Positions 32,952 through 63,150 of a stretch of 64,000 nt of DNA are shown in pieces (the first letter of the stretch is position 1; every line of letters starts with the position of its first letter). The DNA lies in assembly GCA_964394405.1 (NCBI GenBank), contig CAYMVY010000002.1, positions 64,092 through 128,091 on the forward strand, written 5' to 3'. Source of the stretch: an uncultured Gammaproteobacteria bacterium (lineage in GTDB: Bacteria > Patescibacteriota > Patescibacteriia > Magasanikbacterales > UBA922). The notes below the pieces were generated by a model, which saw nothing but the letters and a program-made list of their open reading frames with translations, did no database searches and had not been told where the DNA came from. The position numbers were made by a program, and so were the translations under genes.

Positions 32952-33011
32952 AATAGAATGGAACACGGATGACGCGGATTGAACGGATTTTCACGGATTA
33001 AATACGGATAC
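32952..33011. repeat. array of five CGGAT units at 9-11 bp spacing (half-copy of the ACGGAT palindromic element family)
   Basis: Seen directly between Rrf2 gene and nifS-like gene. Confidence 0.6.
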
Positions 33012-33066
33012 ATTTGATATTTTATTTGAAATTTGAACTTGGAACTTTGAACTTTTATCTAATAAT

Positions 33067-34248
33067 ATGTTTGGAAATAAAAATACAATTTATCTTGACT
33101 ATGCTGCAGCAACTCCTGTGGATGCGCAGATTGTTGATGCAATGAAACCTTATTTTTCTGAATTATATACGAATCCGTCGTCACTGTATGAATCTTCACG
33201 GAAACTCGCGGAGAAATATAGTGTGTGTAGAAAAAGTGTTGCTGATTTTTTTCATACCACACCTGACACTATTACATATGTGAGTGGAGGGAGTGAATCC
33301 ATTACCAGTGCGATTATGGGGATCGCTCGGACACATGTACTCAAGGGGAGGCATATCATTACCACACAGATTGAGCATAGCGCAGTACTCGAACCACTTC
33401 ATGCGCTTGAACGATATGGATTTGAAGTCACCTATGTGCCGGTTGACGAGTTTGGGTTTGTTTCAGTACAAGATGTGGTGAAAGCAATTCGCAAAGATAC
33501 GATTCTGATTTCCATCATGCACGCGAATAATGAGATTGGATCGATTCAGCCAATTGAAGAAATTGGTCGGGAAATTTTGAAATATAGAAAAAAAGAAAAT
33601 ACTATCTTTCCACTCTTTCATGTTGATGCGTGCCAAAGTGTTCTGTATCTCGAATCTTCAGTTGAAAAATTGCACGTGGATGCATTGTCGTGCAATGGCG
33701 GGAAAATATATGGACCGAAATCTTCGGGAATTCTCTATGTGCGACGAGGAGTTGAGTTTGACCCGACGATTCTTGGTGGAGGGCAACAGAACGGTAGGCG
33801 CAGTGGAACGATTGATATGGCTATGGTTGTGGGTATTACTGAAGCGATCAAATCAATTCCCGAGAATTCTGAGTATGAAAGAATTAAGATGCTTCGTGAT
33901 CGATTGTGGAATGGGATTAGGGAAAGTATCGATGACGTAGTTTTAAATGGTCCTGAAATTAGCGATGAAAAAAGATTGCCGAATAATCTCAATGTTTCGT
34001 TTATTGGAGCTCCTGGTGAAGCATTAGTTTTGTATCTGGATGCACAGGGGATTTGTGTGAGTACTGGCTCTGCATGCGCTGAGGATTCTCGATCTGGATC
34101 GCATGTTTTGGAAGCATGTGGATATGATAATGGGAGAAAAAATAGCGCGGTTCGCTTTACGCTTGGAAAAAATACTACTGAGAAAGAGATTGAACAGGTG
34201 ATTGATGTGTTGCCTGGTATCGTTGGAAAGGTTCGTTCTATGCAGTAA
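33067..34248 (+). CDS. cysteine desulfurase, class I (IscS/NifS-like)
   Basis: PLP Lys region and SSGSAC-type C-terminal loop (VSTGSACAE). Confidence 0.85.
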   Translation: MFGNKNTIYLDYAAATPVDAQIVDAMKPYFSELYTNPSSLYESSRKLAEKYSVCRKSVADFFHTTPDTITYVSGGSESITSAIMGIARTHVLKGRHIITTQIEHSAVLEPLHALERYGFEVTYVPVDEFGFVSVQDVVKAIRKDTILISIMHANNEIGSIQPIEEIGREILKYRKKENTIFPLFHVDACQSVLYLESSVEKLHVDALSCNGGKIYGPKSSGILYVRRGVEFDPTILGGGQQNGRRSGTIDMAMVVGITEAIKSIPENSEYERIKMLRDRLWNGIRESIDDVVLNGPEISDEKRLPNNLNVSFIGAPGEALVLYLDAQGICVSTGSACAEDSRSGSHVLEACGYDNGRKNSAVRFTLGKNTTEKEIEQVIDVLPGIVGKVRSMQ

Positions 34249-34252
34249 TAAA

Positions 34253-34337
34253 ATAGAACGCGGATGACACGGATAAACACGGGTCAACGCGGATTCAACC
34301 CGTGACAATCCGTTAAACCCGTGTTGTCAGCGTTCTA
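34253..34337. repeat. palindromic ACGGAT-repeat element (atagaacgcgg...cagcgttctat)
   Basis: 85-bp imperfect palindrome, intercistronic nifS-sufB. Confidence 0.7.
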
Positions 34338-34345
34338 TAAAATTT

Positions 34346-35755
34346 ATGTCAAATAAACCACAACCACATTTTACGATTGATCGTACACTCTACGACTCGG
34401 CAAATATTGACCGGTCTGTTTTTAAGACTGCGCCAGGACTCAGTGAAAATATTATTCGTGAAATTTCAGAGCAGAAAAAAGAACCGAGTTGGATGCTTGA
34501 GAAACGGCTCAAGGCATTTGAGTTTTTCAAACAGACAACAGTCCCTACCTGGGGACCTGATTTATCCAAGCTCAATCTTGATGAGATTATTTATTTTGTC
34601 CGTCCTGACACTGGCGAATCTACGAGCTGGGATACTGTACCAGATGATATCAAGAAAACATTTGAAAAATTGGGGATTCCAGAGGCTGAACGAACCGCAC
34701 TTGGTGGAGCAGGGGCACAGTATGATAGTAATGTGGTGTATCACAAGATCAAGGATGATTTGAAAGCCAAGGGTGTGATTTTTGAAAATATGGATGTGGC
34801 AGTACAACAGTATCCTGATCTAGTGAAGGAATATTTCATGACACAATGTATTCCGATCAATGACCACAAATTTATCATGCTTCATGCGGCTGTGTGGAGC
34901 GGAGGAACTTTTATTTATGTGCCAAAAAATGTCAAAGTTGATTTACCATTGCAAGCATACTTCCGCATGAACGCAGAAAAAGGTGGGCAATTCGAGCACA
35001 CGCTCATCATTGTTGACGAGGGAGCTGAGCTTCACTATATCGAAGGATGCTCGGCTCCTCGATATAATGCTAATTCACTTCATGCAGGTGGAGTAGAGAT
35101 ATTCGTAAAAAAAGGTGGGCGATGCAGATATTCATCAATCGAAAATTGGTCAAAGAATACGTATAACTTAAATACGAAGCGAGCTCTTGTGGATGAAGAG
35201 GCTGTGATCGAATGGGTGAATGGAAATATGGGATCAGGAACGACGATGCTCTATCCATCTTCGGTTCTTCGTGGGCGTGGAGCACGATCAGACAGTCTTG
35301 GAGTTGCATTTGCTGGTCCAGGACAGAATCAGGACACGGGTGCCAAAGCGATCCATGTGGCGCCAGATACCAAGTCAACAATCAAAGCAAAATCAATTTC
35401 AGTAAACGGTGGTGTTACGACGTATCGAGGGCAGGTAAAAGTTACCAAGGGTGCTGAACGATCAAAAGTATCTGTAGAATGTGATGCGCTTCTGATTGGG
35501 GACGATGCAATTTCAAACACTTATCCATACATGAAGATTAATAATAGTACGACTGATATTGCGCATGAAGCGCGAGTTGGAAAAATAGGGGATGATGAGA
35601 TATTTTATCTCCAGTCGCGTGGACTCTCAGCAGAATCTGCAATGAACCTCGTAGTAGCAGGATTTATTGAACCAATTGTAAAATCACTTCCGCTTGAATA
35701 TGCGCTTGAGCTTAATAAACTTATTGAGCTTGAGATGGAAGGAAGTGTCGGGTAA
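34346..35755 (+). CDS. sufB: Fe-S cluster assembly protein SufB
   Basis: Characteristic SufB C-terminal beta-helix region and size. Confidence 0.9.
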   Translation: MSNKPQPHFTIDRTLYDSANIDRSVFKTAPGLSENIIREISEQKKEPSWMLEKRLKAFEFFKQTTVPTWGPDLSKLNLDEIIYFVRPDTGESTSWDTVPDDIKKTFEKLGIPEAERTALGGAGAQYDSNVVYHKIKDDLKAKGVIFENMDVAVQQYPDLVKEYFMTQCIPINDHKFIMLHAAVWSGGTFIYVPKNVKVDLPLQAYFRMNAEKGGQFEHTLIIVDEGAELHYIEGCSAPRYNANSLHAGGVEIFVKKGGRCRYSSIENWSKNTYNLNTKRALVDEEAVIEWVNGNMGSGTTMLYPSSVLRGRGARSDSLGVAFAGPGQNQDTGAKAIHVAPDTKSTIKAKSISVNGGVTTYRGQVKVTKGAERSKVSVECDALLIGDDAISNTYPYMKINNSTTDIAHEARVGKIGDDEIFYLQSRGLSAESAMNLVVAGFIEPIVKSLPLEYALELNKLIELEMEGSVG

Positions 35756-35758
35756 GCA

Positions 35759-36260
35759 TATGAATAAAGACTTATCACACTATAAACGAATTTTGATTGT
35801 CGGAGATGCTGGACGAGGTAAAAGTACTCTGGCAAAGAAATTATCTGAACGTCTGAATATTCCGTGGTATGCGACTGATGATTTTCATTGGAAAGAAAAA
35901 TTTACGACTCTTGCTGATCGTGACGAAAGTATTGAAAAAATACAAAAGATTTATGAGCTCGATGAGTGGATCTTAGAGGGACCTACTGTGCGACTAGTCA
36001 AAGAAGGATTTGAGCGGGCTGAGATAATTTATTATCTGCGTTTTACCAACATTTTTAGTCAGTGGTTTATGCTTTTGAAAAGACACGGTGGTCGTAAAAA
36101 TGAAAGCATACCCCAATTACTCCACCTTCTTAGACATGTGTTTTATAAGCGATTTAGAGTAGGCTACAAGAAACATGACGAGACATTGGACGAAGCAATA
36201 CAGCCGTTTCACTCAAAAGTTTTAGTGTTAACGAGTTTTAAAGAAATTGATGCATTATGA
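35759..36260 (+). CDS. P-loop NMP-kinase-like protein (topology modulation/AAA-kinase family) inserted between sufB and sufD
   Basis: ILIVGDAGRGKSTLAKKL Walker A; start at ATG 35759. Confidence 0.6.
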
Positions 36261-37309
36261 AATCTACTCCCTATACAATCCATTATGGTATAGGAATGCT
36301 CATGAATTTTGAGCCACTGGCTTATGATACGCTCAAATTCGAAGCATCATTGAGCGTGGTTTCACTTTCTGATTCTGAAGTTTGTGATAAGAATACGCTT
36401 CAATCGATTTTAGAAAAAAATGAAAAGTTAAATTCTGTTGTGGGTAAACATTTGGGTGGCTTTCATTTGTTTAACATTGTACATACTCAACCCACTGACG
36501 AATTTTATTTTAGAATAAAAAAACAGGATATAGTAACTACTCACGCGTTGAATATTTCTGTATCAAATCCTACTCGAGTGAAAGTAATTGTAGAAGTAGA
36601 AGCTGGTGCACAAGTAATTATTGTAGAAAATTTTCAAGGCGAAGCGTATGTGGGGTATGAGCTTACTATTATTGCAGGCGAAGGATCAAAAGTTGATTTT
36701 ATTTCAGCTATCAAAGAACCTGGAATGCGAACGATACTCCGAAATGCATTTATGGGAAAAGATTCTAGTATTGTCTGGCATGAGGCCGTGATTGAAGGAA
36801 AATTAATTCAATCTCATACGAGAACATATCTATATGAATCTGGAGCGAGAGCTGAGGTGAAAGATATTTTTGTATTGTCATCTGATACAGTTCTTGATAT
36901 GTATCACTCAATGTATCATCTGGCGTCACACACAACTTCTGACATGCTTACTAAAGGAGTGTTAAGCGATAAATCGCGTGCATTGTATCAGGGGCTTATT
37001 CATATTGATGAGAAAGCTGTTGGTTGTACCGGGTACCAGAAAGAAGATAGTTTGATTCTCTCAAACAGTGCAGAGGTCAATGCGGTTCCTAATCTTGAGA
37101 TTGAGAATAGTGATGTGAAATGTTCGCATGGAGTGACTACTGCGCATATTGATAAGGAAAAACTATTTTATGCAGAGAGTAGGGGAATTGATACGCCAAC
37201 CGCGATAGACTTGTTTGTTGATGGACACCTCGCGCCGTGTCTCGGTACACTACCAGACAATATAAAATTAACAATCCAAGATAGAATAAGAAATAATTTA
37301 AGAAAATAG
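36257..37309 (+). CDS. sufD: Fe-S cluster assembly protein SufD
   Basis: SufB/D family C-terminal domain. Confidence 0.85.
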   Translation: MKSTPYTIHYGIGMLMNFEPLAYDTLKFEASLSVVSLSDSEVCDKNTLQSILEKNEKLNSVVGKHLGGFHLFNIVHTQPTDEFYFRIKKQDIVTTHALNISVSNPTRVKVIVEVEAGAQVIIVENFQGEAYVGYELTIIAGEGSKVDFISAIKEPGMRTILRNAFMGKDSSIVWHEAVIEGKLIQSHTRTYLYESGARAEVKDIFVLSSDTVLDMYHSMYHLASHTTSDMLTKGVLSDKSRALYQGLIHIDEKAVGCTGYQKEDSLILSNSAEVNAVPNLEIENSDVKCSHGVTTAHIDKEKLFYAESRGIDTPTAIDLFVDGHLAPCLGTLPDNIKLTIQDRIRNNLRK

Positions 37310-37398
37310 AACGCGGGTTTAACGGATAACACGGGTTGTCACGGGTAAATTCAAAAAAATCCGTGTGAACCCGTAAATCCGTGTTATCCGCGTTCCAT
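37306..37398. repeat. palindromic ACGGAT-repeat element
   Basis: Intercistronic sufD-sufS; generates spurious MLSAFH... N-terminal extension in ORF call. Confidence 0.7.
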
Positions 37399-37410
37399 TC
37401 TTCCATCAAT

Positions 37411-38610
37411 ATGAACCAAAAAATACGAGAACAATTTATACTTCTCAAAAACCGTCCGGAGTACGCGTATCTTGATAGTGGCGCCACTTCACTTACTCCT
37501 GATTCAGTTACTAAAGTTGTTGACGAATATTACAATTCTTATCGCGCGAATATTCATCGAGGTATGTACCCAGATAGTGAGCGCGCAAGCAAAGCGTATG
37601 AAGACGTGCGTGGAATCGCTGCGAATTTCTTTGGCTGTAACACAAATGAAATATTTTTTACCTTCGGTGCAACGCATGGGCTCAATATGATTGCGTATGG
37701 ACTTGAGCATATATTAAAAAAAGATGATGTTATTCTGCTTTCAGAATTGGAACATCACGCAAATCTCGTTCCATGGCAACAGGTTGCCAAGCGTACGGGT
37801 GCGATACTTCGTTTTATTCCGATTAATAAAGAAACTTTTGAATTAGATCATGATCTAAAAAAATATTTTGACAACAAAGTAAAAATTGTAAGTATCGCAC
37901 ATGTTTCAAATACATTAGGGACTATTCAACCAATTATCCAATTATCTCAATGGGCACATTCGGTTGGTGCGCTCATGATTGTGGATTCGTCACAGTCAGT
38001 CGCGCATGTACCGAGTAACGTTTCAGAATTAGGATGCGATTTTCTGGTATGCTCAGGACACAAGATGTATGCGCCCACCGGAACTGGAATTGTGTATGGA
38101 AATAGCAAGGCTCTAGAATTGCTTAGTCCTAGTATGTTTGGTGGGGATATGATTGATATGGTTGAATTGACTGAGAGTACCTGGGCAGACATTCCACATC
38201 GGTTTGAAGCAGGAACACCAAATATTGGAGGAATTATCGGACTTGGCGAAGCAATTAAATTTATTGAGTCAATTGGGTGGAATAATATTCAAGCACATGA
38301 ACAGAAAATGACTGAGAAGTTGATAGCTGTTATTTCTAAGTATGCGCGTATTATTGGTCCCAGTACTGTTACCAATCGGACTGGAGTGGTTTCGTTTGTT
38401 ATGGATAAGGTACACCCGCATGATATTGCAGGGTTCCTCGGTGAGCGGGTAGTCGCTATACGGGCAGGGCATCATTGTGCAATGCCACTTATGCGTGCAC
38501 TCAATCTGATGCAGGGGACTGCACGGGCAACAGTCGGTGTCTACACTACAGAGGAAGATATCGCACAGCTTGATTCTACATTGAAAGAATTACACACTAC
38601 TTTTGGTTAA
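37411..38610 (+). CDS. sufS: cysteine desulfurase SufS (class II)
   Basis: Aminotransferase class V, RAGHHCA C-terminal motif; start set at MNQKIREQF. Confidence 0.85.
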   Translation: MNQKIREQFILLKNRPEYAYLDSGATSLTPDSVTKVVDEYYNSYRANIHRGMYPDSERASKAYEDVRGIAANFFGCNTNEIFFTFGATHGLNMIAYGLEHILKKDDVILLSELEHHANLVPWQQVAKRTGAILRFIPINKETFELDHDLKKYFDNKVKIVSIAHVSNTLGTIQPIIQLSQWAHSVGALMIVDSSQSVAHVPSNVSELGCDFLVCSGHKMYAPTGTGIVYGNSKALELLSPSMFGGDMIDMVELTESTWADIPHRFEAGTPNIGGIIGLGEAIKFIESIGWNNIQAHEQKMTEKLIAVISKYARIIGPSTVTNRTGVVSFVMDKVHPHDIAGFLGERVVAIRAGHHCAMPLMRALNLMQGTARATVGVYTTEEDIAQLDSTLKELHTTFG

Positions 38611-38611
38611 T

Positions 38612-38998
38612 ATGTATACACACGATCACGAACTCAACTCAATTTACAAAGAATATATTCTTGATTTGTATCGCAATCCCAAGAATAAGAAGAAGATTGA
38701 GCATCCAACACATGTATCGACCAAGAGAAACGCGAGTTGCGGGGATGAATTAACAGTGTATCTGGTGATTACTGATGGAATAGTGACTGATGTGGGGTTT
38801 GATGGCATTGGGTGTGCAATATCACAAGCGTCTGCGTCACTTCTGACTGAACATATCAAGGGCAAATCGCTTGAAGAGGTTCGTAAACTTACGGAAGAAG
38901 ATGTTTTGAAATTATTGGGTATTGAAATTGGAATTACTCGGACCAAATGTGCGTTACTTGCGTACACGTCATGTATAAATGCAATAGAACACGGATAA
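38612..38998 (+). CDS. sufU: SufU/IscU-like sulfur acceptor
   Basis: Three conserved Cys (SCGD..., GCAIS, KCALL); possible TTG start at 38603 instead. Confidence 0.8.
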   Translation: MYTHDHELNSIYKEYILDLYRNPKNKKKIEHPTHVSTKRNASCGDELTVYLVITDGIVTDVGFDGIGCAISQASASLLTEHIKGKSLEEVRKLTEEDVLKLLGIEIGITRTKCALLAYTSCINAIEHG

Positions 38999-39077
38999 AA
39001 CGGATAAACACGGGTTACCGCGGATAAATTCAGAAAAATCCGTGTAAACCCGTAAAACCCGTGCTACCCGCGTTCTG
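38984..39077. repeat. palindromic ACGGAT-repeat element (overlaps sufU stop)
   Basis: Intercistronic sufU-sufC. Confidence 0.7.
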
Positions 39078-39091
39078 TTAAACTAAACTTT

Positions 39092-39820
39092 ATGTCACTA
39101 CAAATACAAAATTTACATGTGTCAGTTGAGGAAAAGCAAATTGTAAAAGGCTTGAATCTTGAAATAAAGCCAGGCGAGGTTCATGCGATCATGGGACCCA
39201 ATGGTTCTGGAAAATCAACATTGGCAAATACATTGCTAAGTCATCCGAAATATACCGTCACTGATGGGAAGATAATTGTTGATAATGTAGACGTTACTGA
39301 CATGGCGACCAATGAGAAAGCAAAACATGGGCTTTTTCTTTCCATGCAGTATCCTCCAGAGATTGAGGGAGTGACCATATCGAATTTTTTACGTCTCGCG
39401 TACAATTCTTTGAAAGGTGCTTCAGTTAATCCGCTTGAGTTTCATCGAAAATTAGTTGAAAAAATAAAAGAGTTTGGCATGGATCCCTCGTTTGCGACAA
39501 GGTATGTGAATGCGGGTTTTTCTGGAGGAGAGAAGAAACGTGCTGAGATTCTCCAGCTTTCAGTATTGGAACCAAAGTATGCTGTGCTTGATGAGACTGA
39601 TTCTGGACTTGATGTCGATGCTCTGAAAATTGTTGCAGAGGGTATTACCAAATTTAAGAGCGATAAAACTGGCGTACTTCTTATTACGCACTATAATCGC
39701 ATTCTTGATTTTGTGGTTCCTGATTTTGTACATATTATGATTGATGGGAAAATTGTGAAGAGTGGAGGGAAGGAACTGGCATATGAAGTGGAGAAGGGTG
39801 GGTATACTAATTTCAAATAG
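39092..39820 (+). CDS. sufC: Fe-S assembly ATPase SufC
   Basis: ABC ATPase Walker A/B and LSGGE signature. Confidence 0.9.
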   Translation: MSLQIQNLHVSVEEKQIVKGLNLEIKPGEVHAIMGPNGSGKSTLANTLLSHPKYTVTDGKIIVDNVDVTDMATNEKAKHGLFLSMQYPPEIEGVTISNFLRLAYNSLKGASVNPLEFHRKLVEKIKEFGMDPSFATRYVNAGFSGGEKKRAEILQLSVLEPKYAVLDETDSGLDVDALKIVAEGITKFKSDKTGVLLITHYNRILDFVVPDFVHIMIDGKIVKSGGKELAYEVEKGGYTNFK

Positions 39821-39902
39821 AACGCGGGTGACACGGGTAAACACGGATTTACGCTGATTTAATCCGTGACAACCCGTTAAACCCGTGTTATCCGTGTTCC
39901 AT
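39817..39902. repeat. palindromic ACGGAT-repeat element (overlaps sufC stop)
   Basis: Intercistronic sufC-sufT; generates spurious MLSVFH N-terminal extension. Confidence 0.7.
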
Positions 39903-39908
39903 AAATAT

Positions 39909-40205
39909 ATGATTACTAAGGAAGAAATTTTAGAAAAATTAAAAGGAGTTAAAGATCCTGAGGTCAATGTTGACATTGTGACTATGGGACTGATTTATGA
40001 TATCCATATTGATGAGAAAGGGGAGTCAGTTGCAATCACTATGACCTATACTACACCATTTTGTCCCTTTGGTCCGCAGCTCACTTCTGAAATAAAGGAT
40101 GCTATTGTTGAGCTTGGATTTTCGCCAGAAAAAGTATCAATTGACGTGACATTTGATCCACCATGGGAAGCACCGCCTGATTTGCGGGCTGCTATGGGAG
40201 TGTGA
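39909..40205 (+). CDS. MIP18/DUF59 Fe-S assembly protein (SufT-like)
   Basis: Conserved Cys in TTPFCPF context; start set at MITKEE. Confidence 0.7.
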   Translation: MITKEEILEKLKGVKDPEVNVDIVTMGLIYDIHIDEKGESVAITMTYTTPFCPFGPQLTSEIKDAIVELGFSPEKVSIDVTFDPPWEAPPDLRAAMGV

Positions 40206-40241
40206 CAAAGTCAAAAGGAAAAAGGTAAAAGTAAAAAGATT

Positions 40242-41840: not shown

Positions 41841-41866
41841 AAATCCGCCCCAAAGGGCGGTTTTAT
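41841..41866. terminator. bidirectional terminator ccgccc-caaa-gggcgg + T-run
   Basis: Seen directly. Confidence 0.6.
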
Positions 41867-46206: not shown

Positions 46207-46292
46207 ATAGAACGCGGATTACACGGATAAACACGGGTCAACACGGACTTAATCCGTGACAACCTGTTAAACCCGTGTCATCAGTGTTCTAT
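46207..46292. repeat. palindromic ACGGAT-repeat element
   Basis: About 85% identical to copy at 34253-34337; intercistronic trmH-gltX. Confidence 0.7.
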
Positions 46293-55751: not shown

Positions 55752-56748
55752 ATATCCGCATTGGCCAGTAAGTAATCGGATTGATAATCAGATCATGACA
55801 TTCGACCAGATTTTTCACTTCACCACCAAAACCTTTTTTGAAATGTGTTATACCTTTGAATGGGTGATTTTTTTTGGCATCTTCGGGTGCTACTCCCCAG
55901 AAATTATACCATCGCATGCCCCTCTTCTTTGCCTCGAGTATCGCACTCCACTGCAGTAGATAGGGTGTCGGAATTTTGTTATTGTTCCCGAGCGATGCGC
56001 CATGTCGATATGCTGCCGTCGATCCGTAGTAATACACCACGGCACTTGAGTCGAGTGTTCCATTAGGGAGATAGCAGTAGAACACTACGGCTTCTGCATT
56101 TTTTTCAAACGAAGTAAATTCTTTTTCCACGTATTCATTTGAAAAGCGCACGAATCGGTGCCGTTTTGCGGTACGATCATGTAGTTCGTGGAATTCTTTC
56201 AGTTTTTCTGAGTGTGTAAATGATTGTACGGTGACACCCTCTTTCTCACATCTTCGGATGAGATTTCGATGATTTTTATTCATGTGCGCCATGAGCTCAT
56301 CTTCTCCTTGGGTTACATCGAGGATACAGGTGGTTTCTGCTAGTGCGTGTATCGGAGATTTTTTGAATCCAATTCGCTCGATTGTGTCTACTATGGTATC
56401 ACTTGATTCAACAAATGGACTTATTCGTATGCACGACACACGATGCTCGCGCGCTTTATTTTTGAGATACGCGACGCATGATTCCAATAATTCTGCATAG
56501 ATGTTCTGATCAGTTGCTATCGGACCATAGGGGAGATAGAAGTACGATCCCCTCTTTGCATGTATCACGATGACGAGTGCACCTCCGACTAATGTTTCTT
56601 TTTCATACGCGCCAATAATAAAGGAGGTGTCCCCCATAGACGCATAAAAATCTCCATATGCAGGTGCCTGGGTCATCGGTGAGTATATGACTCCGCGCAC
56701 GAGTGTGTCCCAGATATTTTTTTCTTGTATCTCTCTAACGGTGATCAT
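55717..56748 (-). CDS. FemAB-family peptidyltransferase (peptidoglycan interpeptide bridge formation)
   Basis: Size and GNAT-like duplicated fold features typical of FemAB. Confidence 0.7.
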   Translation of the reverse strand: MITVREIQEKNIWDTLVRGVIYSPMTQAPAYGDFYASMGDTSFIIGAYEKETLVGGALVIVIHAKRGSYFYLPYGPIATDQNIYAELLESCVAYLKNKAREHRVSCIRISPFVESSDTIVDTIERIGFKKSPIHALAETTCILDVTQGEDELMAHMNKNHRNLIRRCEKEGVTVQSFTHSEKLKEFHELHDRTAKRHRFVRFSNEYVEKEFTSFEKNAEAVVFYCYLPNGTLDSSAVVYYYGSTAAYRHGASLGNNNKIPTPYLLQWSAILEAKKRGMRWYNFWGVAPEDAKKNHPFKGITHFKKGFGGEVKNLVECHDLIINPITYWPMRIFETLRRIKRGF

Positions 56749-57973
56749 AAAATGAATTTATCAGACGAGAAATTCGATCCGCGGTCTTGGTGGGGATGTT
56801 CCTGCTGGTCGGCAGATTGATAGATTCTTTTGCCAGTTTTTCTGCTGTAGGACAACTCCCTGCTGTGTATCCTGTCACTGCCATATCACTATCATCAGGA
56901 GCGATGACCGTGTCATACCAGTCACCGAGTAGAATTCCCTTGCTCTTGAAGTGGGTATGGAGTTCTCCTGGATTTGGAACAAGGAGAGGGTACCGCACCA
57001 GGTAGCTACTCTGTACCTCCTTGGGTTTTCGCACTTGCTTTGCTTCAATTTCTTCTCGATACCAATGCGCAATCTGATGGCGATGCTCATTGGTCTCCTC
57101 CAGCTGATTCAATTGATTGTAGAGTATATGTGCAAGTGAATTGGCCAGGCGAGAAACTTTGAAATGGCTGCGTTTCCCCTTTTTTTCTTTTTCATAAATT
57201 ACGCGCCCACTTATTGAGAGTTTTTTTAGTATTGCAAGCATGAATTTGCCGATTTTGATTCGGTAGAGAGATTTTCCGATTACAAATAGGGGGAAATTCC
57301 ACAGATATGGAAGTATCCAGTGCAAGCGTGGATATTTGATTTTTTCATATTCAGCTTGAATTTTTTCGCCCATTGCGTCGTCGGTCGCGATCAATGCACC
57401 ACCTCTGCCACATGAAATTACTTTGTCTGATCCAAAACTAAACATACCAATATCACCGATGGTGCCTAGTTTTTTGCCTCTGTATTCTCCCCCCATTACG
57501 TGCGCGCAATCTTCGATTACTGCGATTCCTTTTTCTTTTGCAAGAGCCATGATTTTTTCCATGTCAGCGGGAATACCGAATGTGTGCTGCACGATAATCG
57601 CTTTTGTTTGTGGAGTGATTTTTTTCTCCAGATCCAGAGGATCCATGGTAAAGTCGTTTTTGACATCCACATATACGGGCGTCGCTCCTACCCATCTGAT
57701 GGGATTGATGACCACAATACAGGTGTATGCCTGAACAATCACCTCATCCCCTTCCCCTACTTCGAGAGACCGGAGCGCGATTTCCAAAGCACTTCTCCCA
57801 CTATCGAATAGATATGCCTCTGAAACTGAGAAATTTTTTCTTATGATTCTTGAAACTTTGTTTTCGTATTCACCCCGTATCAGATTACGCCATCTCCATG
57901 GCGCTATGAGGTAGGCCATTGCAGTGAGAATATCTTCACGTGTTGCGTTGGGTTGGAATCCAGTAAATATCAT
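56735..57973 (-). CDS. DegT/DnrJ/EryC1/StrS-family PLP-dependent sugar aminotransferase
   Basis: FGSDKVISCGRGGAL Lys-PLP region. Confidence 0.85.
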   Translation of the reverse strand: MIFTGFQPNATREDILTAMAYLIAPWRWRNLIRGEYENKVSRIIRKNFSVSEAYLFDSGRSALEIALRSLEVGEGDEVIVQAYTCIVVINPIRWVGATPVYVDVKNDFTMDPLDLEKKITPQTKAIIVQHTFGIPADMEKIMALAKEKGIAVIEDCAHVMGGEYRGKKLGTIGDIGMFSFGSDKVISCGRGGALIATDDAMGEKIQAEYEKIKYPRLHWILPYLWNFPLFVIGKSLYRIKIGKFMLAILKKLSISGRVIYEKEKKGKRSHFKVSRLANSLAHILYNQLNQLEETNEHRHQIAHWYREEIEAKQVRKPKEVQSSYLVRYPLLVPNPGELHTHFKSKGILLGDWYDTVIAPDDSDMAVTGYTAGSCPTAEKLAKESINLPTSRNIPTKTADRISRLINSFYDHR

Positions 57974-58003
57974 GGGAAAAAATTATTCTAATAATATGAG
58001 TCC

Positions 58004-59608
58004 TTAGGTACTCTGATTATTCGAACTATACAATTCTCGAACAGTGTCCGGCACTTTGTTTTCTATCAATACCACCACATTTTCATCTTTTAAATTTTTT
58101 ACAAAATTCATGAGTTCTTCAGTTTCGAATATTTCTTTGACTACGGTATGATATTTTTCCAGGATACCCCTCTTCATGTCAGACGCAAAATCAGGGGTAA
58201 TGATAACTAGCTCATCAGCAAAGAATGATATCTCGTTCCCAATTCGTTCGTGAAGCTCACTACTCTCGCTCCCTAGCTCGTGCATACCCCGTGTGAGTAC
58301 CACTCGTCTTCTAGATGAAGGAAATGAGCCAATGAGTTCAAGCGCAGCTTTGAACCCATCAGGATTTGAATTATAGCTATCGTCAATTATCGTCGCTTTT
58401 CCAAATGAAAAAATTTTGAGTAATTGATCGGGTTGTGTGAGCGATTCTATTGCGGTAGCTATTTTTTCATTCGACATACCTACTGTTTTTGCTGCGAGAA
58501 TACATGCGGCAATATTCGTAGCCTGGTGTTCGCCAATAACTTTGGTCTGCACTTGCATTTTTTCTTCGCTTTTTTCCATGTGCAGTGAATATCTGATTTC
58601 AAGTGTGTCACCTTTTTGATTGGCTGACTCTATAAGGCAATTCGGATGATTTTCTGACTCGATTCCAAAGGTAAGAACCTTACTTTCGAGCTCTGCTACC
58701 CATTCCATGCAGAGACGATTGTCTGCATTGGTTATAGACACGCCACTTTTTGGAATTGAACGCAGGAGCTCGTATTTTGTACTTTGTATGTTTTGTATTG
58801 ACCCAAACAGGCTCAGGTGTTGCTGATTGATCGCAGTCAAAATTCCAATAGTCGGATGTACAATGTCACATACGAGTTTGATATCTCCCTTGTTGTACGC
58901 TCCCATCTCGATGATACAGATATCAATGTTTGAAAAATCAGTTGCCAGAATGAATTTTGAAATTCCGATATCACTATTGGTATTTTTGGGAGTATAGGCA
59001 ACGTGGTATGAATGTGAGAGAATCTGCGCCAGCAGTTCTTTTACTGAAGTTTTTCCATAGCTTCCCGTGATCCCGATTCGGATAAGTTTTGGATATTTTT
59101 TTAGTTTATTTTCAGCTTTTCTAAAGTAAATCCGTTTGATTTGGTCGGTCAGCCAATTAATAGCGATGACTATGAGACTCAGTATGTAGAGTCTGAGTGC
59201 ACTCATCAATAATATGAAAATCCAGTCTTTTGTGATCGCGTATACGATATATTCCAATATTACTGCGCTCATGATAATGATAAGCGCCTTGATACTCATA
59301 CTCGGGCGACGATAGACACCTCTGTATTTTCGCCAAATGACATGCAGAATGTCAAAAATAAAAATAGTACCAATACTATATAGGAGTATGGTGTGATTAA
59401 AAGGAACGGTGATAAATAGAAAAATTGCTAGTATTGTCCGTGCGATGACATAGCGATTGTTGAGTAGATATTTACCTTGTTTGGTACTCAGATAGTCTCT
59501 AAATCGGTCTATACGATACCATTTGAGTTGCCAGAAATAGCAGTACTCGGCATAAACCAGTGCTGCGCTTAGAAACCAAACGATAAGAATTAGAGTGTGT
59601 CTGTTCAT
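58004..59608 (-). CDS. Mur ligase family protein (MurF-like) fused to an N-terminal polytopic membrane domain (about 170 aa, about 5 TM)
   Basis: GITGSYGKTS P-loop at about residue 180 after hydrophobic N-terminus; Mur central and C-terminal domains. Confidence 0.7.
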   Translation of the reverse strand: MNRHTLILIVWFLSAALVYAEYCYFWQLKWYRIDRFRDYLSTKQGKYLLNNRYVIARTILAIFLFITVPFNHTILLYSIGTIFIFDILHVIWRKYRGVYRRPSMSIKALIIIMSAVILEYIVYAITKDWIFILLMSALRLYILSLIVIAINWLTDQIKRIYFRKAENKLKKYPKLIRIGITGSYGKTSVKELLAQILSHSYHVAYTPKNTNSDIGISKFILATDFSNIDICIIEMGAYNKGDIKLVCDIVHPTIGILTAINQQHLSLFGSIQNIQSTKYELLRSIPKSGVSITNADNRLCMEWVAELESKVLTFGIESENHPNCLIESANQKGDTLEIRYSLHMEKSEEKMQVQTKVIGEHQATNIAACILAAKTVGMSNEKIATAIESLTQPDQLLKIFSFGKATIIDDSYNSNPDGFKAALELIGSFPSSRRRVVLTRGMHELGSESSELHERIGNEISFFADELVIITPDFASDMKRGILEKYHTVVKEIFETEELMNFVKNLKDENVVVLIENKVPDTVRELYSSNNQST

Positions 59609-59612
59609 AACA

Positions 59613-60353
59613 TTATCTTCCAGTATATCGCTCTTTTAACTTCATGAGAATATCTGCAGTGTGCGTGTGATGCAGACCATGCTTTCCAGTGGGAAATATG
59701 ACCAATTCTGATTGTGGGAGCATTTTTTGGATCCGTCGTCCGTGCCTCAGTGGTGTGTAGGTATCTTGTGCACCCCAAAACAGGAGAACATTAGAAGTAA
59801 TACTTGGTAATACGTCTCGCATATCTTCCCGTATGACTTTTTTAAAAATTTCTCGTTCAATCCCATGGGTGTTGGTGTAATCTGGAGAGAAAAATGCGTT
59901 GTACATTTTTCTTTTTATTTCAGAGATTTTTGTATTGTTTTGTCGTGTGCCTAAGATGCTTTTTCCCATCTGTGCCATCACCTTGAATATTGCCCGTTTT
60001 ATTTTTCGTTTTGGTCGTATTACTGCCGGAGCGATGAGGACCAATTCATCGAATAGACGCGGTTGCCTACCTGCAAGACATGTAGCCACTTGTCCTCCAA
60101 ATGAGTGACCCAGAAGAATGAGTTTGCTATTTGGGTTTTCTTTTTTTATCTCAGCGATCTGTAGGTTCACATAGTCGGCAAATTGTTCGACCCCCCATAC
60201 GGTGCTCGGACATGAGACTCCCCCGAAACAGGGTAGTTCAATACAGCGGACATCAAAAAAATCTTTTGCATGTGCAATGAATTCTTTCCAGGTTTCTTTT
60301 GTCCCTCCCCAACCAGGGACAATACATAATATTCCCCGCGAGTGCTCCACCAT
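59613..60353 (-). CDS. alpha/beta hydrolase fold protein
   Basis: GHSFGG nucleophile elbow. Confidence 0.75.
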   Translation of the reverse strand: MVEHSRGILCIVPGWGGTKETWKEFIAHAKDFFDVRCIELPCFGGVSCPSTVWGVEQFADYVNLQIAEIKKENPNSKLILLGHSFGGQVATCLAGRQPRLFDELVLIAPAVIRPKRKIKRAIFKVMAQMGKSILGTRQNNTKISEIKRKMYNAFFSPDYTNTHGIEREIFKKVIREDMRDVLPSITSNVLLFWGAQDTYTPLRHGRRIQKMLPQSELVIFPTGKHGLHHTHTADILMKLKERYTGR

Positions 60354-60357
60354 ACGC

Positions 60358-61602
60358 TTACAATGTTTTTTTATTTCCTAAGTATGGACGCAATGCTTTG
60401 GGTACAGTGATAGTACCATCTTCATTCTGATGATTTTCTACTATGGCTATGGGAAATCTACTGGTGACTACTGCAGTACCATTGAGCGTATGAACCAATT
60501 CTTTTTTCCCCTCTTCTGTCTTGTACTTGATATTAGCTCGTCTCGCCTGATAATCCGTACAGTTGCTCGTGCTGGTGATCTCACCATATCCTTCATTCAT
60601 AACCATCCATGCCTCAATATCAAATTTGCGATATGCGGGACCGCCGAGGTCACCACTTGCAATATCAATCACTCGATACGGAATCTCGAGTCCATCGCAA
60701 ATTTCTTTTTCTACTGATAATAATTCGGCATGCATTTTCTCACTATCTTCTGGTTTGCAGAATATAAACATCTCGAGTTTGGTAAATTGGTGTACGCGAT
60801 ATAATCCTTTGCTTGTGCGTCCATATGCCCCTGCTTCGGTTCGGAAACAGTGTGAGAGTGCTACATATTTTTTGGGACCTTCTGAAAGATCGAGTACTTC
60901 GTCTGCGTGATATCCGAGAACCGAAATTTCTGCAGTTCCAATCAAGCTTAAGTCTTCGCCTTGTATAGAGTAGATTTGCGTTTCTTCACCTCGAGGATTG
61001 AACCCTGCACTCTCCAGTACATCCTTTTTTGCAAGATCGGGTGTTTCAATCAGTTCAAAGCCATGTTTCTCTGCAGTATCGATTCCAAATGCAATGAGCG
61101 CCTGATTCAGACGGACCAAATCACCTTTTGCAAAATAAAATTTTGATCCTGCCACTTTTGCTCCACGTTCAAAATCAATCATCCCCCGTTTGAGGAGCAA
61201 TTCTTCGTGGTCTTTGGGTGTGAAAGAAAATTTTTGCGCTTCACCATGTTGTTCGAGTATCTTGAAGTCATCTTCACCGCCGACGGGTGTTTGTGGGTGA
61301 GTAAAATTGGGTATTGCGCGCAATAGTGCAGTATATGTTTCTTCAGTTGCTGCTCGTTCATTATCCATTTTTTCGATTGTTGCGCCAATTTCCTTCATTT
61401 TTTTGATTGTTTCTGGGGAAGGTTTTCCTACAGTCTTTGAACCTTGATTTCTTTCACTGCGAAGATCATCAATTTTTTGCTGCAATGATCTTCGTTTTTC
61501 ATCCAACTGCAATAATTGGTCTATATCAATACGCACATTTCGAATTTCGCAATTCTTTTTTACTTCGTCTGTGTGTTCTCTGATAAATTTTGTATCGATC
61601 AT
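60358..61602 (-). CDS. serS: seryl-tRNA synthetase
   Basis: N-terminal coiled-coil, class II motifs. Confidence 0.9.
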   Translation of the reverse strand: MIDTKFIREHTDEVKKNCEIRNVRIDIDQLLQLDEKRRSLQQKIDDLRSERNQGSKTVGKPSPETIKKMKEIGATIEKMDNERAATEETYTALLRAIPNFTHPQTPVGGEDDFKILEQHGEAQKFSFTPKDHEELLLKRGMIDFERGAKVAGSKFYFAKGDLVRLNQALIAFGIDTAEKHGFELIETPDLAKKDVLESAGFNPRGEETQIYSIQGEDLSLIGTAEISVLGYHADEVLDLSEGPKKYVALSHCFRTEAGAYGRTSKGLYRVHQFTKLEMFIFCKPEDSEKMHAELLSVEKEICDGLEIPYRVIDIASGDLGGPAYRKFDIEAWMVMNEGYGEITSTSNCTDYQARRANIKYKTEEGKKELVHTLNGTAVVTSRFPIAIVENHQNEDGTITVPKALRPYLGNKKTL

Positions 61603-61612
61603 AGGCGTGTGA

Positions 61613-62659
61613 TTATAGATTGTTAGTTTTGATTATCTCTGCGAGCTCTTCATATATTTTCTCGTACATTTTTTTATTCTCCCCTATCAGTGCATAGTTG
61701 GTCACTTCTTCTGGTAGTACCCATGTGGTTTCCTGGACTTCCTCGTCATTTACTTTTCCGTCCCCTCCAATAATTTTGCATACGAATGGTAGAAGATAAA
61801 TTTGTATACCCTGATGCGAGCTTCGTGGATTTTTGATCTGCACTGTCCAGGCACATCGTAGTTGGCTCACTATCGCGACTGTATATCCGCATTCTTCTCC
61901 TACCTCGCGAATTACACTTTCCTCAACGGTCTCTCCAATCTCGACACCTCCCCCGGGAAATTCCCATAAGCCGTGGACATCGGGTTGTTCGGGGTCGTTT
62001 CGTTTGTTGAGTAGAATCTTTCCATTTTTTACAACAACGCCTATTGGGACTACCAGATGTTTTCCCCCAAATGTGTTTAGTATATGGCGTTTTATTCCTC
62101 CGATAGCCTTTGCTCTATGACTTATACTATTTTTTTCTTCCTCACTCATCTCTGCATATGTTTTTTCTATCTCTGGTACATAGAAAATTGGATCATATCC
62201 AAAACCATTTTCACCTTTTTTTTCTTTGAGTATTATTCCTCTGGTTTCACCGGTCGTTACCACCAGGTCTTTGCTTTTTGGGTCATACAGCGCGAGAACC
62301 CCTGCAAATGTAGCTGTGCGTTCTTTTTCGTCCGTGTTTTTTTCAAGTTTTTTTAGTGTTTCATCTACACGAGCATCAGAGCTATCAGCTATTCGAGCGC
62401 TATGCACGCCTGGCCAGCCACCTAGCTGATCGATGAACATTCCCGCATCATCTGCTAGTGTGCTGTGCCCGCTCTCATGAGCATAGTATTTTGCTTTGAG
62501 TATGGCATTTCCTTCGATAGTACTCTCAGTTTCATCTGGCGCCGGAATTTTTGTATCAAGATCATTCAGTGAGATGCAGGTGATCGGTAATCCGCGCAAC
62601 ATATGTGATAATTCTCGGTATTTTCCTTCATTCGTTGTGGCAATTAGGATAGTCTTCAT
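61613..62659 (-). CDS. fusion: Ham1/RdgB non-canonical NTP pyrophosphatase (N) + Nudix hydrolase (C)
   Basis: TTNEGKYRE and ...FGYDPIF Ham1 motifs; Nudix box GGGVEIGETVEESVIREVGEECG. Confidence 0.8.
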   Translation of the reverse strand: MKTILIATTNEGKYRELSHMLRGLPITCISLNDLDTKIPAPDETESTIEGNAILKAKYYAHESGHSTLADDAGMFIDQLGGWPGVHSARIADSSDARVDETLKKLEKNTDEKERTATFAGVLALYDPKSKDLVVTTGETRGIILKEKKGENGFGYDPIFYVPEIEKTYAEMSEEEKNSISHRAKAIGGIKRHILNTFGGKHLVVPIGVVVKNGKILLNKRNDPEQPDVHGLWEFPGGGVEIGETVEESVIREVGEECGYTVAIVSQLRCAWTVQIKNPRSSHQGIQIYLLPFVCKIIGGDGKVNDEEVQETTWVLPEEVTNYALIGENKKMYEKIYEELAEIIKTNNL

Positions 62660-63087
62660 ACGTACTTGAGCAGATTTTGTTTTAGAATGGTCGTTTTGTA
62701 TTTTTTGGATTTGTAGGGTTTTGCGCGTTTTACTATTGTTTTCAATCCGAATTCTTGTATTTTTTGCTCCAATTTTTCAGTAAACGCCTGCTGATCATAG
62801 CCGAGAACAATAACATCTGGCTTTATTTCTCTGATCCTTCGGTACATGTCTGTCGGATGTCCCAGAACTATCCTATCAATTAGTGAAAATTCTTTGAGAA
62901 ATATAGCCCGCTCTCTTTCTGAAAAAAGTGGAGTTGTGCCTTTCACCTCTCTCGCTCGGTTGTCTCGAGCAACGACGACCACTAGATTTGTTCCATATCT
63001 TTTTGCTTCTTTGAAAAACGCAATATGTCCGAGATGTACGATATCAAATGTACCGAATACCATGACTGTTTTTTGTTTTGTTTCCAT
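62656..63087 (-). CDS. cytidylyltransferase-like nucleotidyltransferase (GTFDxxHxGH; NMNAT/RibL/TagD-like)
   Basis: VFGTFDIVHLGH motif, 143 aa. Confidence 0.7.
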   Translation of the reverse strand: METKQKTVMVFGTFDIVHLGHIAFFKEAKRYGTNLVVVVARDNRAREVKGTTPLFSERERAIFLKEFSLIDRIVLGHPTDMYRRIREIKPDVIVLGYDQQAFTEKLEQKIQEFGLKTIVKRAKPYKSKKYKTTILKQNLLKYV

Positions 63088-63097
63088 ACTCAGTACA

Positions 63098-63150
63098 ATA
63101 GAACACGGATTTCACAGAATTAGACGGAATTGGAACGAATTTAATTCTGA
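63098..63150. repeat. degenerate copy of the ACGGAT-repeat element (atagaacacggat...)
   Basis: Begins with the family's atagaac terminus; units at about 10-bp spacing; intercistronic lysS and downstream gene. Confidence 0.5.

Follow-up and report, generated by a model that had tools for sequence, protein, structure and literature searches.

The closest known analogue of the repeats described here is, by resemblance of layout, the ORF-carrying intervening sequence (IVS) of 23S rRNA. IVSs, known from Coxiella, Leptospira, Brucella and Xanthomonas, are like the full-length form of our element in being about 430–760 nt long, in their sporadic and apparently horizontal occurrence, in the long stem formed by their inverted repeats, and in their one small ORF (∼120 aa), which is sense to the host transcript; the copies analyzed here correspond to the stem only. 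[quoted passage not shown] A CAGAT-type unit also occurs in many arms of our family, which is the one link in arm sequence, read from the printed heptamers. IVSs are located in rRNA helices 25/45 and carry a four-helix-bundle protein (PF05635), whereas the elements here lie between protein genes and their cargo is a nuclease; the repeated units differ as well, with IVS-type TTAGCY 7-mers and GGCAGT 6-mers as against RCNGAT 9–10-mers. Three 23S_rRNA_IVP genes found outside rRNA (L107, L009, L209) likewise lie between short tandem units arrayed in inverted orientation.

MITEs such as Correia, ERIC, RUP and Nezha share other traits with the repeats: they are short and inverted at their termini, reach many copies per genome, fall into genome-specific subfamilies, leave both filled and empty sites, and have ends in common with a longer coding element. 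That partner encodes a DDE or HUH transposase, whereas here it encodes a PD-(D/E)XK nuclease of about 125 residues; further, and unlike MITEs, our family has no visible target duplication, has arms of phased units and shows conservation that extends over bacterial phyla and into archaea. REP/BIME elements, too, are extragenic palindromes that closely follow genes; their families are species-specific, and their repeats can lie on both sides of the RAYT partner gene (REPtrons). Integron attC sites come close to the repeats in length and in the environmental taxa that have them, and they too are imperfect palindromes, with ...AAC and GTT... ends, that separate co-directional genes. We rejected them as candidates, since the ATAGAAC/GTTCTAT ends break the Y and R positions of RYYYAAC/GTTRRRY, there is neither an integrase nor a cassette array, and the insertions lie inside the conserved suf biosynthetic operon; we also know of no primary sequence common to attC sites across phyla.

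The stretch we analyzed, a 64-kb window from a Magasanikbacteria-like CPR lineage, contains seven such features. We consider it probable, at roughly 0.7, that they are part of a widespread family of selfish DNA elements of very small size, as non-autonomous members without the GxxExxY gene that the full form carries. That they belong to the palindromic family associated with GxxExxY genes can be said with high confidence.

The repeats in the window

All seven sites were confirmed, five as complete palindromes of 86–95 bp, one as a solo arm and one as a truncated copy (Table 1). The terminus pattern ATAGAACRCGGRT, with up to one mismatch, had 11 matches in the window, every one at the ends of these sites; the expectation from shuffled windows was 0.20 and none of 100 shuffles reached 11, in support of the earlier proposal of a genuine repeat family. 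About 41 of the 182 CGGRT/AYCCG pentamers fall within the approximately 560 bp of the elements, which make up 0.9% of the window. An arm profile, trained on other genomes and GxxExxY flanks and iterated on unrelated loci, recovered both arms of all five full copies (E-values 3e-8 to 5e-6), the solo arm at 32961–32998 (2.8e-11) and the truncated copy at 63098–63128 (1e-3), and matched nothing else in the window. Arms consist of an AT(A/G)GAAC terminus followed by three to five RCNGAT units every 9–10 bp (9, 9 and 10 bp in the consensus), and full copies are an inverted pair of them.

Table 1. Positions and surroundings of the repeat features in the window
Feature	Position	Strand	Location and characteristics	Junction empty in relatives
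Solo left arm	32952..33011	+	ATGGAAC terminus and five CGGAT units, without right arm	L200, L201, L202, L206 (only TAATATG)
Heptamer array TTTGAAC, ∼4.4 copies	33012..33060	+	directly 3' of the solo arm; TRF 33025–33055	
Complete gene-less palindrome, subfamily A	34253..34338	.	cysteine desulfurase gene / sufB; both arms matched by profile	L200
Complete gene-less palindrome, subfamily B	37306..37398	.	sufD / sufS; both arms matched by profile	L200, L202, L206
Complete gene-less palindrome, subfamily B	38984..39078	.	sufU / sufC; both arms matched by profile	L200, L201, L202, L204, L206
Complete gene-less palindrome, subfamily A	39817..39902	.	sufC / FeS_assembly_P gene; both arms matched by profile	L200, L201, L202, L204
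Complete gene-less palindrome, subfamily A	46207..46292	.	SpoU/TrmH-type methyltransferase gene / gltX, outside suf operon	L200, L201, L204
5'-part copy (left arm and loop start), third subfamily, CGGAA/CGAAT units	63098..63150	+	between two minus-strand genes	

The copies in the window, which has no rRNA, all lie between protein-coding genes, and most copies closely follow the end of a gene (median 24 nt). The similarity of copies 34253 and 46207, previously estimated at about 85%, is 88%. Some copies were thought to supply the stop or last codons of the upstream gene, and this is so for sufU, which obtains its last four codons and TAA stop from copy 38984 (ORF end 38998), for sufC, whose stop is the TAG at 39818–39820, and also for sufD, whose stop is the TAG at 37307–37309; it does not hold for the iscR-like Rrf2 gene, which ends at 32946, before the element. 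Copy 63098 had been taken as degenerate, but rather corresponds to the 50 nt at the 5' end of a third subfamily, identical in 44–45 of 50 nt (88–90%) to three copies in the related genome L225; the minus-strand ORF 63141–63998 has its stop codon inside this copy, which is followed by a heptamer array at 63153–63184.

The solo arm is part of an insertion of about 120 bp that separates the Rrf2 gene from the cysteine desulfurase gene, which starts at 33067; its complementarity to the right arm of copy 39817 is 87%. Whether the adjoining heptamer array belongs to the element is uncertain: it is a repeat of 16867–16906, and TTGAAC is a variant element terminus, seen in L145, L156, L193 and L197.

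At the gathering score, no Rfam family matched the elements; a permissive Rfam scan of eight loci gave only sub-threshold matches to generic hairpins (miRNA), and we found no description of the family in Rfam or the searchable literature.

Empty and filled junctions in related genomes

Five related CPR genomes, with SufC proteins 83–88% identical, have the same suf synteny with tight stop/start junctions and no arm match, and each of the six junctions compared is empty in at least one relative within this range of SufC identity. The same synteny with empty junctions identifies the copies in the window as insertions. As judged from these sequence comparisons, the elements evidently entered stop/start spacers of 1–10 nt in the suf operon and between trmH and gltX. 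Insertion polymorphism, one of the marks of MITEs, is thus present through the empty sites in related genomes, as are short non-coding length, terminal inverted repeats and multiple copies; most full copies in other genomes measure about 85–100 bp.

In the closest relative (89%), the same junctions are also occupied, though by elements from a different subfamily. In L225, the site of copy 37306 contains an orthologous copy from a different subfamily, and that of copy 38984 an orthologous copy with homologous flanks; at orthologous junctions, the L225 copies are 62–69% identical to those in the window, while paralogues are 81–89% identical. The occurrence of different subfamilies at the same junctions points to homogenisation within each genome: copies within one genome stay more alike than same-position copies in a sister genome.

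The GxxExxY gene and the spread of the arms

Copies are found well beyond the window, in both bacterial and archaeal phyla, so that the restriction to the window which the preliminary description named as a refutation is clearly not the case. A 24-nt arm pattern, for which about 2 matches were expected from the information in the pattern, had more than 118, spread over 17 or more bacterial phyla and two lineages of archaea; isolates are among them, as are archaeal contigs in which an arm adjoins an SRP19 gene. Identical arms adjoin unrelated genes in Bacteroidota, Chloroflexota, Methylococcaceae and archaea, and copies from a CPR bacterium and Methanoperedens are 77–80% identical.

One locus, L003, has an arm-ORF-arm layout, in which the ORF matches TIGR04256 (E-value 1e-39) and PDDEXK_3 (2e-41), and an isolate plasmid has the same arrangement around a GxxExxY gene. 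We fetched 80 GxxExxY loci by protein patterns only, some of them near-duplicates, which yielded 69 non-redundant genes. At least three units were present on one or both sides of 52 of these genes (∼75%; both sides, 31), compared to 15 of 219 control windows. With the profile, an arm was found within 170 bp in 55 of 75 GxxExxY genes, 24 of which had the order arm(+)-gene-arm(−), in units of 457–575 bp; detectable arms were absent at about a quarter of the genes. Arm density was 2.5/kb near GxxExxY genes and 0.24/kb elsewhere. In approximately 200 loci we found no other cargo between arms and no ORF the size of a transposase. There is no GxxExxY gene within the window itself. Since the same arms flank GxxExxY genes, the copies in the window can be understood as MITE-like, gene-less derivatives, and the MITE reading offered in the preliminary description is borne out by the empty sites and by a longer form that carries a gene between the same arms.

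The protein is predicted to be a nuclease of about 125 residues with a PD-(D/E)XK fold resembling Cas4 and λ exonuclease, with its catalytic residues intact: E30, D69, E79 and K81 are invariant, and the structure model (pLDDT 92) has Cas4 SSO0001 as its best PDB match. Between co-directional genes, the gene is sense in 36 cases and antisense in 2 (the sense/antisense test has only 26 cases), a bias that fits read-through expression. The gene could, however, merely prefer the loops of palindromes that are moved by other means.

Such would be the case if the repeats were no more than ordinary MITEs, derived from a DDE transposon of classical type such as an IS630/mariner-like one with a TA target, and the GxxExxY gene a frequent passenger or squatter in their loops. 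The termini, A-TA-GAAC...GTTC-TA-T, could conceal a TA duplication, the empty junctions are of the type TAATATG, which contains ATAT, and solo and truncated arms are common, as they are in decaying MITEs. Yet among 148 termini not selected by pattern, 61% have A and 26% have G as their third base, so the TA is no clean or faithful duplication; beyond the termini, we saw no direct repeat, and the divergence of the relatives allows the junctions to be placed only approximately. The loci without a transposase-sized ORF and with GxxExxY as the sole cargo speak against this origin, as does the sharing of terminal repeats across domains of life, for which we know of no normal precedent among DDE elements. 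We regard it as unlikely.

Putative binding arrays, hairpins and a proposed route of movement

In RNA, the folding energies of the five full copies range from −36 to −47 kcal/mol (z −5.9 to −8.3; copy 34253 −40.3 kcal/mol, z −5.9; copy 37306 −46.6 kcal/mol, z −8.3), and the solo arm shows no folding (z +0.2). Together with the location of every copy inside a transcription unit, with no terminator at any of them, and with the related IVS stems being RNase III substrates (PMC4990558), these folds would suit intercistronic hairpins selected by the host to stabilize, punctuate or process the suf mRNA. However, both strands fold equally well (sense versus antisense 11 versus 14, p 0.29), and the left arm of a copy is barely more identical to its own reverse-complemented right arm (0.674) than to those of unrelated copies (0.641 ± 0.004), with no compensation seen between arms. 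Conservation is concentrated in the GAAC and C-GAT positions (0.88–0.98), with spacers at chance level. That the units are conserved, and not the complementarity of the stem, and that folding has no strand bias favours phased arrays of putative protein-binding sites over a selected RNA hairpin; the pattern fits the protein-binding alternative raised in the preliminary description better than a stem. Furthermore, close relatives have the suf operon without the elements, and the same sequence lies beside unrelated genes in many phyla. Hairpins under host selection are therefore quite improbable, and the part in stabilizing or punctuating mRNA that was proposed earlier, if taken as a selected one, is unsupported, as we see no strand bias, no arm compensation and no terminator-like tail; effects of this kind are possible as a side effect of the elements. 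In the polycistronic mRNA, the copies would form long imperfect hairpins that are probably tolerated. By analogy to the ORF-carrying IVSs, RNase III may cut them, though we give this rather less than an even chance.

The earlier suggestion of REP/BIME elements, spread by a RAYT (IS200-like Y1) transposase, has in its favour that the copies are palindromic, intergenic, just past gene ends and many per genome, and that 11 of 75 partner genes have whole palindromes on both sides, as in REPtrons. But instead of REP hairpins, GC-rich, about 20–40 bp long (typically ∼35) and with a GTAG/GGAG head, we find phased arrays of short motifs over 86–95 bp; no RAYT or IS200-like gene occurs between or beside the arms in the approximately 200 loci, where the flanked gene encodes a PD-(D/E)XK nuclease and not an HUH Y1 enzyme; and the similarity between CPR and Methanoperedens copies is at odds with species-specific families, which makes this origin very improbable. 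Hardly credible is an operator array for the adjacent Rrf2 (IscR-like) or another host Fe-S assembly regulator, as had been suggested by the position of the one-sided array, with its five CGGAT units, between Rrf2 and the first gene of the suf operon, because copies of the same family are also found at trmH–gltX and at 63098, identical arms occur near unrelated genes in the lineages named above, relatives with the same Rrf2–suf arrangement have no spacer there, and a promoter-like site lies upstream of the Rrf2 gene (32509–32537).

We thus return to the selfish element with its GxxExxY gene. The complete element, about 460–575 bp long, comprises a left arm, the gene and an inverted left arm, and the copies in the window consist of the two arms with a short loop. 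In the mechanism we propose, the element's own nuclease would bind to the phased sites that are arrayed in inverted orientation in the two arms, and would cut at or between the arms; host recombination repair would then copy the element from a paralogous copy, in a homing-like gene conversion in which palindromes without the gene would act in trans or serve as landing pads. To our knowledge, binding or cutting by a GxxExxY protein has never been demonstrated. We also know of no strand-transfer activity in a lone PD-(D/E)XK nuclease, so true transposition would need further factors. That the nuclease drives the movement of the element, by whatever route, we put at just short of even odds.

Homing endonuclease genes resemble the full element in that a small nuclease gene sits mid-way in an otherwise continuous symmetrical site, and I-Ssp6803I is a homing enzyme of the PD-(D/E)XK type. 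Here there is no intron or intein, and, unlike in classical homing, the site itself occurs as a dispersed repeat and arrives at new loci. If break repair both spread and homogenised the elements, the closer similarity of paralogues than of orthologues in these genomes would be explained, and homing-like gene conversion, if true, would account for the spread of the family and its homogenisation alike.

Palindromes of the suf region and the genes beside them

The preliminary description had listed seven repeat sites in the window, and the sequences at these sites agree with it. A search for ATAGAACRCGGRT with at most one mismatch gave 11 matches in the window, every one at an end of the seven sites, against an expectation of 0.20 from shuffled sequences (0 of 100 shuffles reached 11), and a repeat finder places the window copies together in a single family. 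Identity is 85-88% within subfamily A and 82% within subfamily B. The truncated copy at 63098 corresponds to the first 50 nt of a third subfamily, found in the closest relative (L225), with 44-45 of the 50 nucleotides identical.

The neighbouring genes are, in order, Rrf2, a class-V aminotransferase (cysteine desulfurase), SufB, an AAA_18-like ORF, SufD, SufS, SufU, SufC and FeS_assembly_P; a SpoU-type methyltransferase and GltX lie beyond the suf genes. The closest named relatives of SufC are from Candidatus Magasanikbacteria (65-69% identity), which places the window in a CPR bacterium. The proposal that the elements supply the ends of upstream genes stands for sufC, whose stop codon is the TAG of the element, and for SufU, whose last four codons and stop derive from it; the Rrf2 gene, for which the same had been proposed, stops before the element. 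The stop codon of sufD is also an element TAG. The 166-residue AAA_18-like (P-loop kinase-type) ORF between sufB and sufD is missing in three relatives with the same suf synteny (L200, L202, L206), where the two genes abut, and a fourth (L201) has a different insertion in the same place.

Tandem heptamer arrays, one of them an inverted pair, also occur in intergenic spacers. One array lies directly 3' of the solo arm and another directly 3' of the truncated copy; relatives L202 and L204 have kept the array at 40213. The element terminus has TTGAAC among its variants. Separately, the window has two copies, 94% identical, of a 32-nt GC-rich hairpin with a T-tail (ACCCTGCACCAGAACGGTGCAGGGTTT), a terminator-like repeat with no relation to the CGGAT family.

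Elements and associated features (window coordinates unless L225 is named)
Feature	Coordinates	Remarks
Complete palindrome	34253-34338	subfamily A
Complete palindrome	37306-37398	subfamily B
Complete palindrome	38984-39078	subfamily B
Complete palindrome	39817-39902	subfamily A
Complete palindrome	46207-46292	subfamily A
Solo arm	32952-33011	
Truncated copy	63098-63150	L225-type third subfamily
Element in L225	238-327	third subfamily, CGGAA/CGAAT units
Element in L225	1903-1991	third subfamily, CGGAA/CGAAT units
Element in L225	2731-2819	third subfamily, CGGAA/CGAAT units
AAGTAAA/TTTACTT inverted pair	1693-1716 / 1772-1808	intergenic spacer
Tandem heptamer arrays	12159-12211; 16871-16908; 33025-33055; 40213-40238; 63153-63184	intergenic spacers; units GTTTTAA, TTTGAAC (twice), AAAAGGA, CTTTTGA
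AAA_18-like ORF	35760-36260	between sufB and sufD
suf operon terminator	41845-41860	bidirectional
Hairpin with T-tail	10833-10864; 27925-27956	terminator-like

Distribution and turnover of the elements

The elements are not restricted to this window. A 24-nt arm pattern (ATAGAACRCGGRTNNNACGGRTAA) matches more than 118 stretches elsewhere, at the least, in contigs representing one genome per species, where chance would give about 2 matches in 596 Gb on both strands (computed from the information content of the pattern). Hosts among the matches listed include Bacteroidota, Ignavibacteria, Calditrichia, KSB1, Cloacimonadota, Chloroflexota, Acidobacteriota, Methylococcaceae, Desulfuromonadaceae, Planctomycetota, Cyanobacteria, Nitrospinota, Leptospirales, Armatimonadota, two other CPR groups and the cultured isolates Lunatibacter and Foetidibacter, as well as, among archaea, about a dozen Methanoperedens contigs and one of Thermoplasmata. 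The archaeal context is genuine, since on one archaeal contig the SRP19 gene lies 198 bp from the arm. Several single genomes contribute many contigs, and copies are alike within these genomes. Most full copies elsewhere also measure ~85-100 bp, and about 40% of the arms are solo. Outside the window, the best matches to its copies come from Marinifilum and Methanoperedens, with 77-80% identity along their full length. Viral carriage was rejected, as the arm pattern had no match in 2.9 million viral contigs, among which a single GxxExxY locus was found; a blastn search of copy 46207 against PLSDB plasmids and E. coli genomes also yielded no matches.

Across genomes, the outer termini are close to gene ends, at a median of 24 nt and with 37 of 90 no more than 15 nt away, and farther from gene starts (median 89 nt). 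Contexts were co-directional in 26 cases, convergent in 7 and divergent in 3. No constant neighbour was found beside the solo arms, which are surrounded by diverse housekeeping genes. Some copies have been modified: six from Methanoperedens (L037 6862-6990, L070, L078, L079 5388-5561, L110, L111 4865-5028) contain a nested insert of ~75 nt, made of small hairpins, inside the left arm, and contigs L019 and L099 have other palindromic elements nested within the loop. Two contigs carry tandem arrays, one repeating the element together with ~47 nt of the 3' end of a host gene (L146 1459-2001) and the other with a constant 14-nt spacer (L132 1376-1990), which suggests that unequal recombination or break repair duplicated the element.

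The gene order from Rrf2 to GltX is kept in five relatives (L200, L201, L202/L203, L204/L205, L206; SufC 83-88% identical), in which the arm profile has no match. At six positions occupied in the window, the stop/start junction measures 1-10 nt in at least one relative and usually in several, typically as TAATATG. It follows that the copies in the window were inserted into these spacers in a lineage-specific manner. Other, unrelated small palindromes occur in the same suf spacers of relatives (L201 2936-3011; L206 3855-3938 and 8730-8819; L202 3243-3306); one type has the form GGCTACAAAAG...CTTTTGTAGCC and another GTCATCCCCGTGAAAACGGGAATGAC. It seems that small elements in general can land at the suf stop/start junctions.

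In L225, at 89% the closest relative, the sufD|sufS, sufU|sufC and sufC|FeS_assembly_P junctions are occupied by elements whose flanks are homologous to those of the window (e.g. AAATGCA|ATAGAAC and GTTCT(G/A)T|TAAACTAA). Elements at the same positions in the two genomes are 62-69% identical, against 81-89% for paralogues inside either genome. This points to homogenisation of the copies within a genome (concerted evolution), or to replacement.

A nuclease-family gene between the arms

An Ignavibacteria contig (L003) has a left and a right arm separated by 536 bp; the single ORF between them, of 133 residues, matches TIGR04256 'GxxExxY protein' (E 1e-39) and Pfam PDDEXK_3 (2e-41). We fetched 80 metagenome GxxExxY loci by protein patterns of the family only. 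The flanks, inspected in 67 of the 80, have the same architecture almost everywhere: AT(A/G)GAAC and then three or four RCNGAT units on the 5' side, and ATCNGYG units closing in GTTCTAT on the 3' side. The unit varies by lineage (CGGAT, CAGAT, CTGAT; more rarely TATGAT, CGAAT, CCGAT). At least three units were present on one or both sides of 52 of 69 non-redundant genes and on both sides of 31, compared to 15 of 219 control windows. With an iterated profile, an arm was found within 170 bp of 55 of 75 genes; 24 of these 55 have exactly the arrangement arm(+)-gene-arm(-), in units of 457-575 bp, and in 11 the gene lies between two whole palindromes. Arms number 2.5 per kb close to the gene, compared to 0.24 per kb in the remainder of these loci. 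Between arms, GxxExxY was the only cargo observed.

The same arrangement, with unannotated arms, surrounds an annotated 'GxxExxY protein' gene on a plasmid of a cultured Fusobacteria isolate, and GxxExxY genes occur on eight plasmids. No GxxExxY gene is present within the 64-kb window. As their arms are shared with the arm-GxxExxY-arm units, the window palindromes are two arms without the gene. Between co-directional neighbours, the gene lies in sense in 36 loci and in antisense in 2 (some loci being near-duplicates), a bias suggesting that it depends on read-through transcription.

The family is large, with at least 8000 matches in a word-indexed search and 23,214 representatives at 50% identity (E <= 1e-3). 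The residues of the PD-(D/E)XK signature (E30, D69, E79, K81) are invariant in 38 diverse members. A sequence search of solved structures gave no match to GxxExxY; the AlphaFold model (pLDDT 92) has Cas4 SSO0001 as its nearest structure (E 1e-4, TM 0.6), and also resembles lambda/alkaline exonucleases. A 2012 survey of the superfamily (PMC3424549) gives the function of PDDEXK_3 as unknown and records multiple transfers of it between the bacterial and archaeal domains. Some members (P0361-P0365 and others) have 250-270 residues and two full domain copies; these either hint at a functional unit that is at least a dimer or reflect fused calls across tandem elements.

Nature of the elements

The preliminary description had offered both a role in mRNA stability or punctuation and an array of protein-binding sites as possibilities. 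Single-strand folding gives the five complete copies energies between -36 and -47 kcal/mol, with z-scores between -5.9 and -8.3, and no fold for the one-sided copy (z +0.2). No window copy is followed by a T-run, and an Rfam scan of the elements gave no matches at gathering thresholds and, when permissive, sub-threshold miRNA-like hairpins only. The logo of 148 termini, which were not selected by pattern, is A(.75) T(.94) A/G(.61/.26) G A A C R C N G A T. Beyond the termini no direct repeat occurs, and hence no target duplication is seen. In 143 copies, the left arm and the reverse complement of its own right arm are 0.674 identical, compared to 0.641 +/- 0.004 for pairings between unrelated copies. 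GAAC and C-GAT positions are conserved between arms (0.88-0.98), the inter-unit spacers and the N of CNGAT match at chance level, and arm-to-arm covariation is almost nil. The palindromic form is therefore explained by a phased-unit consensus common to both arms, and not by maintenance of the stem itself. Folding also shows no strand asymmetry in the 26 co-directional contexts (11 vs 14, p 0.29). The almost absent covariation and the lack of strand bias argue against a selected RNA hairpin; with units conserved, spacers at chance and both strands folding equally, the sequences favour phased arrays of protein-binding sites.

The comparison to MITEs holds insofar as the copies are a short gene-less form with empty sites in relatives; a DDE-type MITE fails on at least one defining feature. 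The same is true of membership in the REP/BIME-RAYT group and of the proposed tie to Rrf2, in which the arm would serve as operator; neither of these two readings stands. Likenesses of the arms to CsrA sites, DnaA boxes and attC sites were dropped because the arms are DNA-symmetrical, present in archaea and at odds with the consensus cores; the attC reading also fails on at least one defining feature.

The closest known analogue is the ORF-carrying intervening sequence (IVS) of 23S rRNA. That of Coxiella has 428 nt and a 28-bp terminal stem, is excised by RNase III, and contains a small ORF in sense orientation with tandem GACAGAT heptamers ahead of it; this IVS has long been suspected to be the remnant of a mobile element (PMC4990558). 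The IVS ORF family (PF05635, a four-helix bundle) is also found outside rRNA. Three genes for four helix bundle/23S_rRNA_IVP proteins (L107 3338-3685 (-), L009 3736-4077, L209 401-778) lie between inverted arrays of short tandem units. These loci share the architecture of the GxxExxY elements but differ in cargo and in unit (TTAGCY heptamers, GGCAGT hexamers). The likeness, which for Coxiella is to the published description, hints at a wider class joining IVS-ORF loci and GxxExxY elements. No account of the arms or of their link to GxxExxY came up in the searchable literature, beyond whose reach lie many subscription papers and database comments that may mention them; searches with the repeat words returned unrelated primers only.

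In the simplest mechanism that fits these findings, the element's own nuclease would recognise the unit arrays of the arms. Its cut, followed by recombinational repair off another copy, could bring the gene into gene-less palindromes and homogenise the copies. The gene-less form would multiply as well; the loops shared within subfamilies A and B speak for copying of the short form itself over five independent deletions. In mRNA, the copies would be imperfect hairpins tolerated by the cell. A lone PD-(D/E)XK nuclease cannot by itself explain the arrival at new loci.

We rate the elements as a small selfish kind, palindromic or IVS-like, with an unusual nuclease partner and spread across domains. 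Our joint reading goes further and is tentative, with a probability of roughly one in three: that the palindromes and their GxxExxY parents form a previously unrecognised class of minimal mobile elements, at ~0.5 kb below any known autonomous insertion sequence, which crosses bacterial phyla and enters archaea with only a ~125-residue PD-(D/E)XK nuclease recognising inverted phased-unit arrays and host repair doing the copying, and that one superclass, defined by a small ORF between inverted tandem-unit arrays, takes in ORF-carrying 23S rRNA IVSs and 'four helix bundle protein' genes as sister families.

These palindromes of 85-95 bp are unannotated and present in many MAGs. In this reduced CPR genome they disrupt the tight stop/start coupling of operons, alter gene ends (the stop codons of sufD and sufC, the C-terminus of SufU) and flag sites of recent rearrangement. 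For GxxExxY/PDDEXK_3, a very large family without assigned function (~23,000 clusters at 50% identity), the arms provide a concrete, testable context. If the nuclease does recognise the arrays on either side of its gene, very small DNA parasites would have a new means of persisting and spreading, and 23S rRNA intervening sequences, the origin of which has been a question since 1990, would have a candidate source in these elements.
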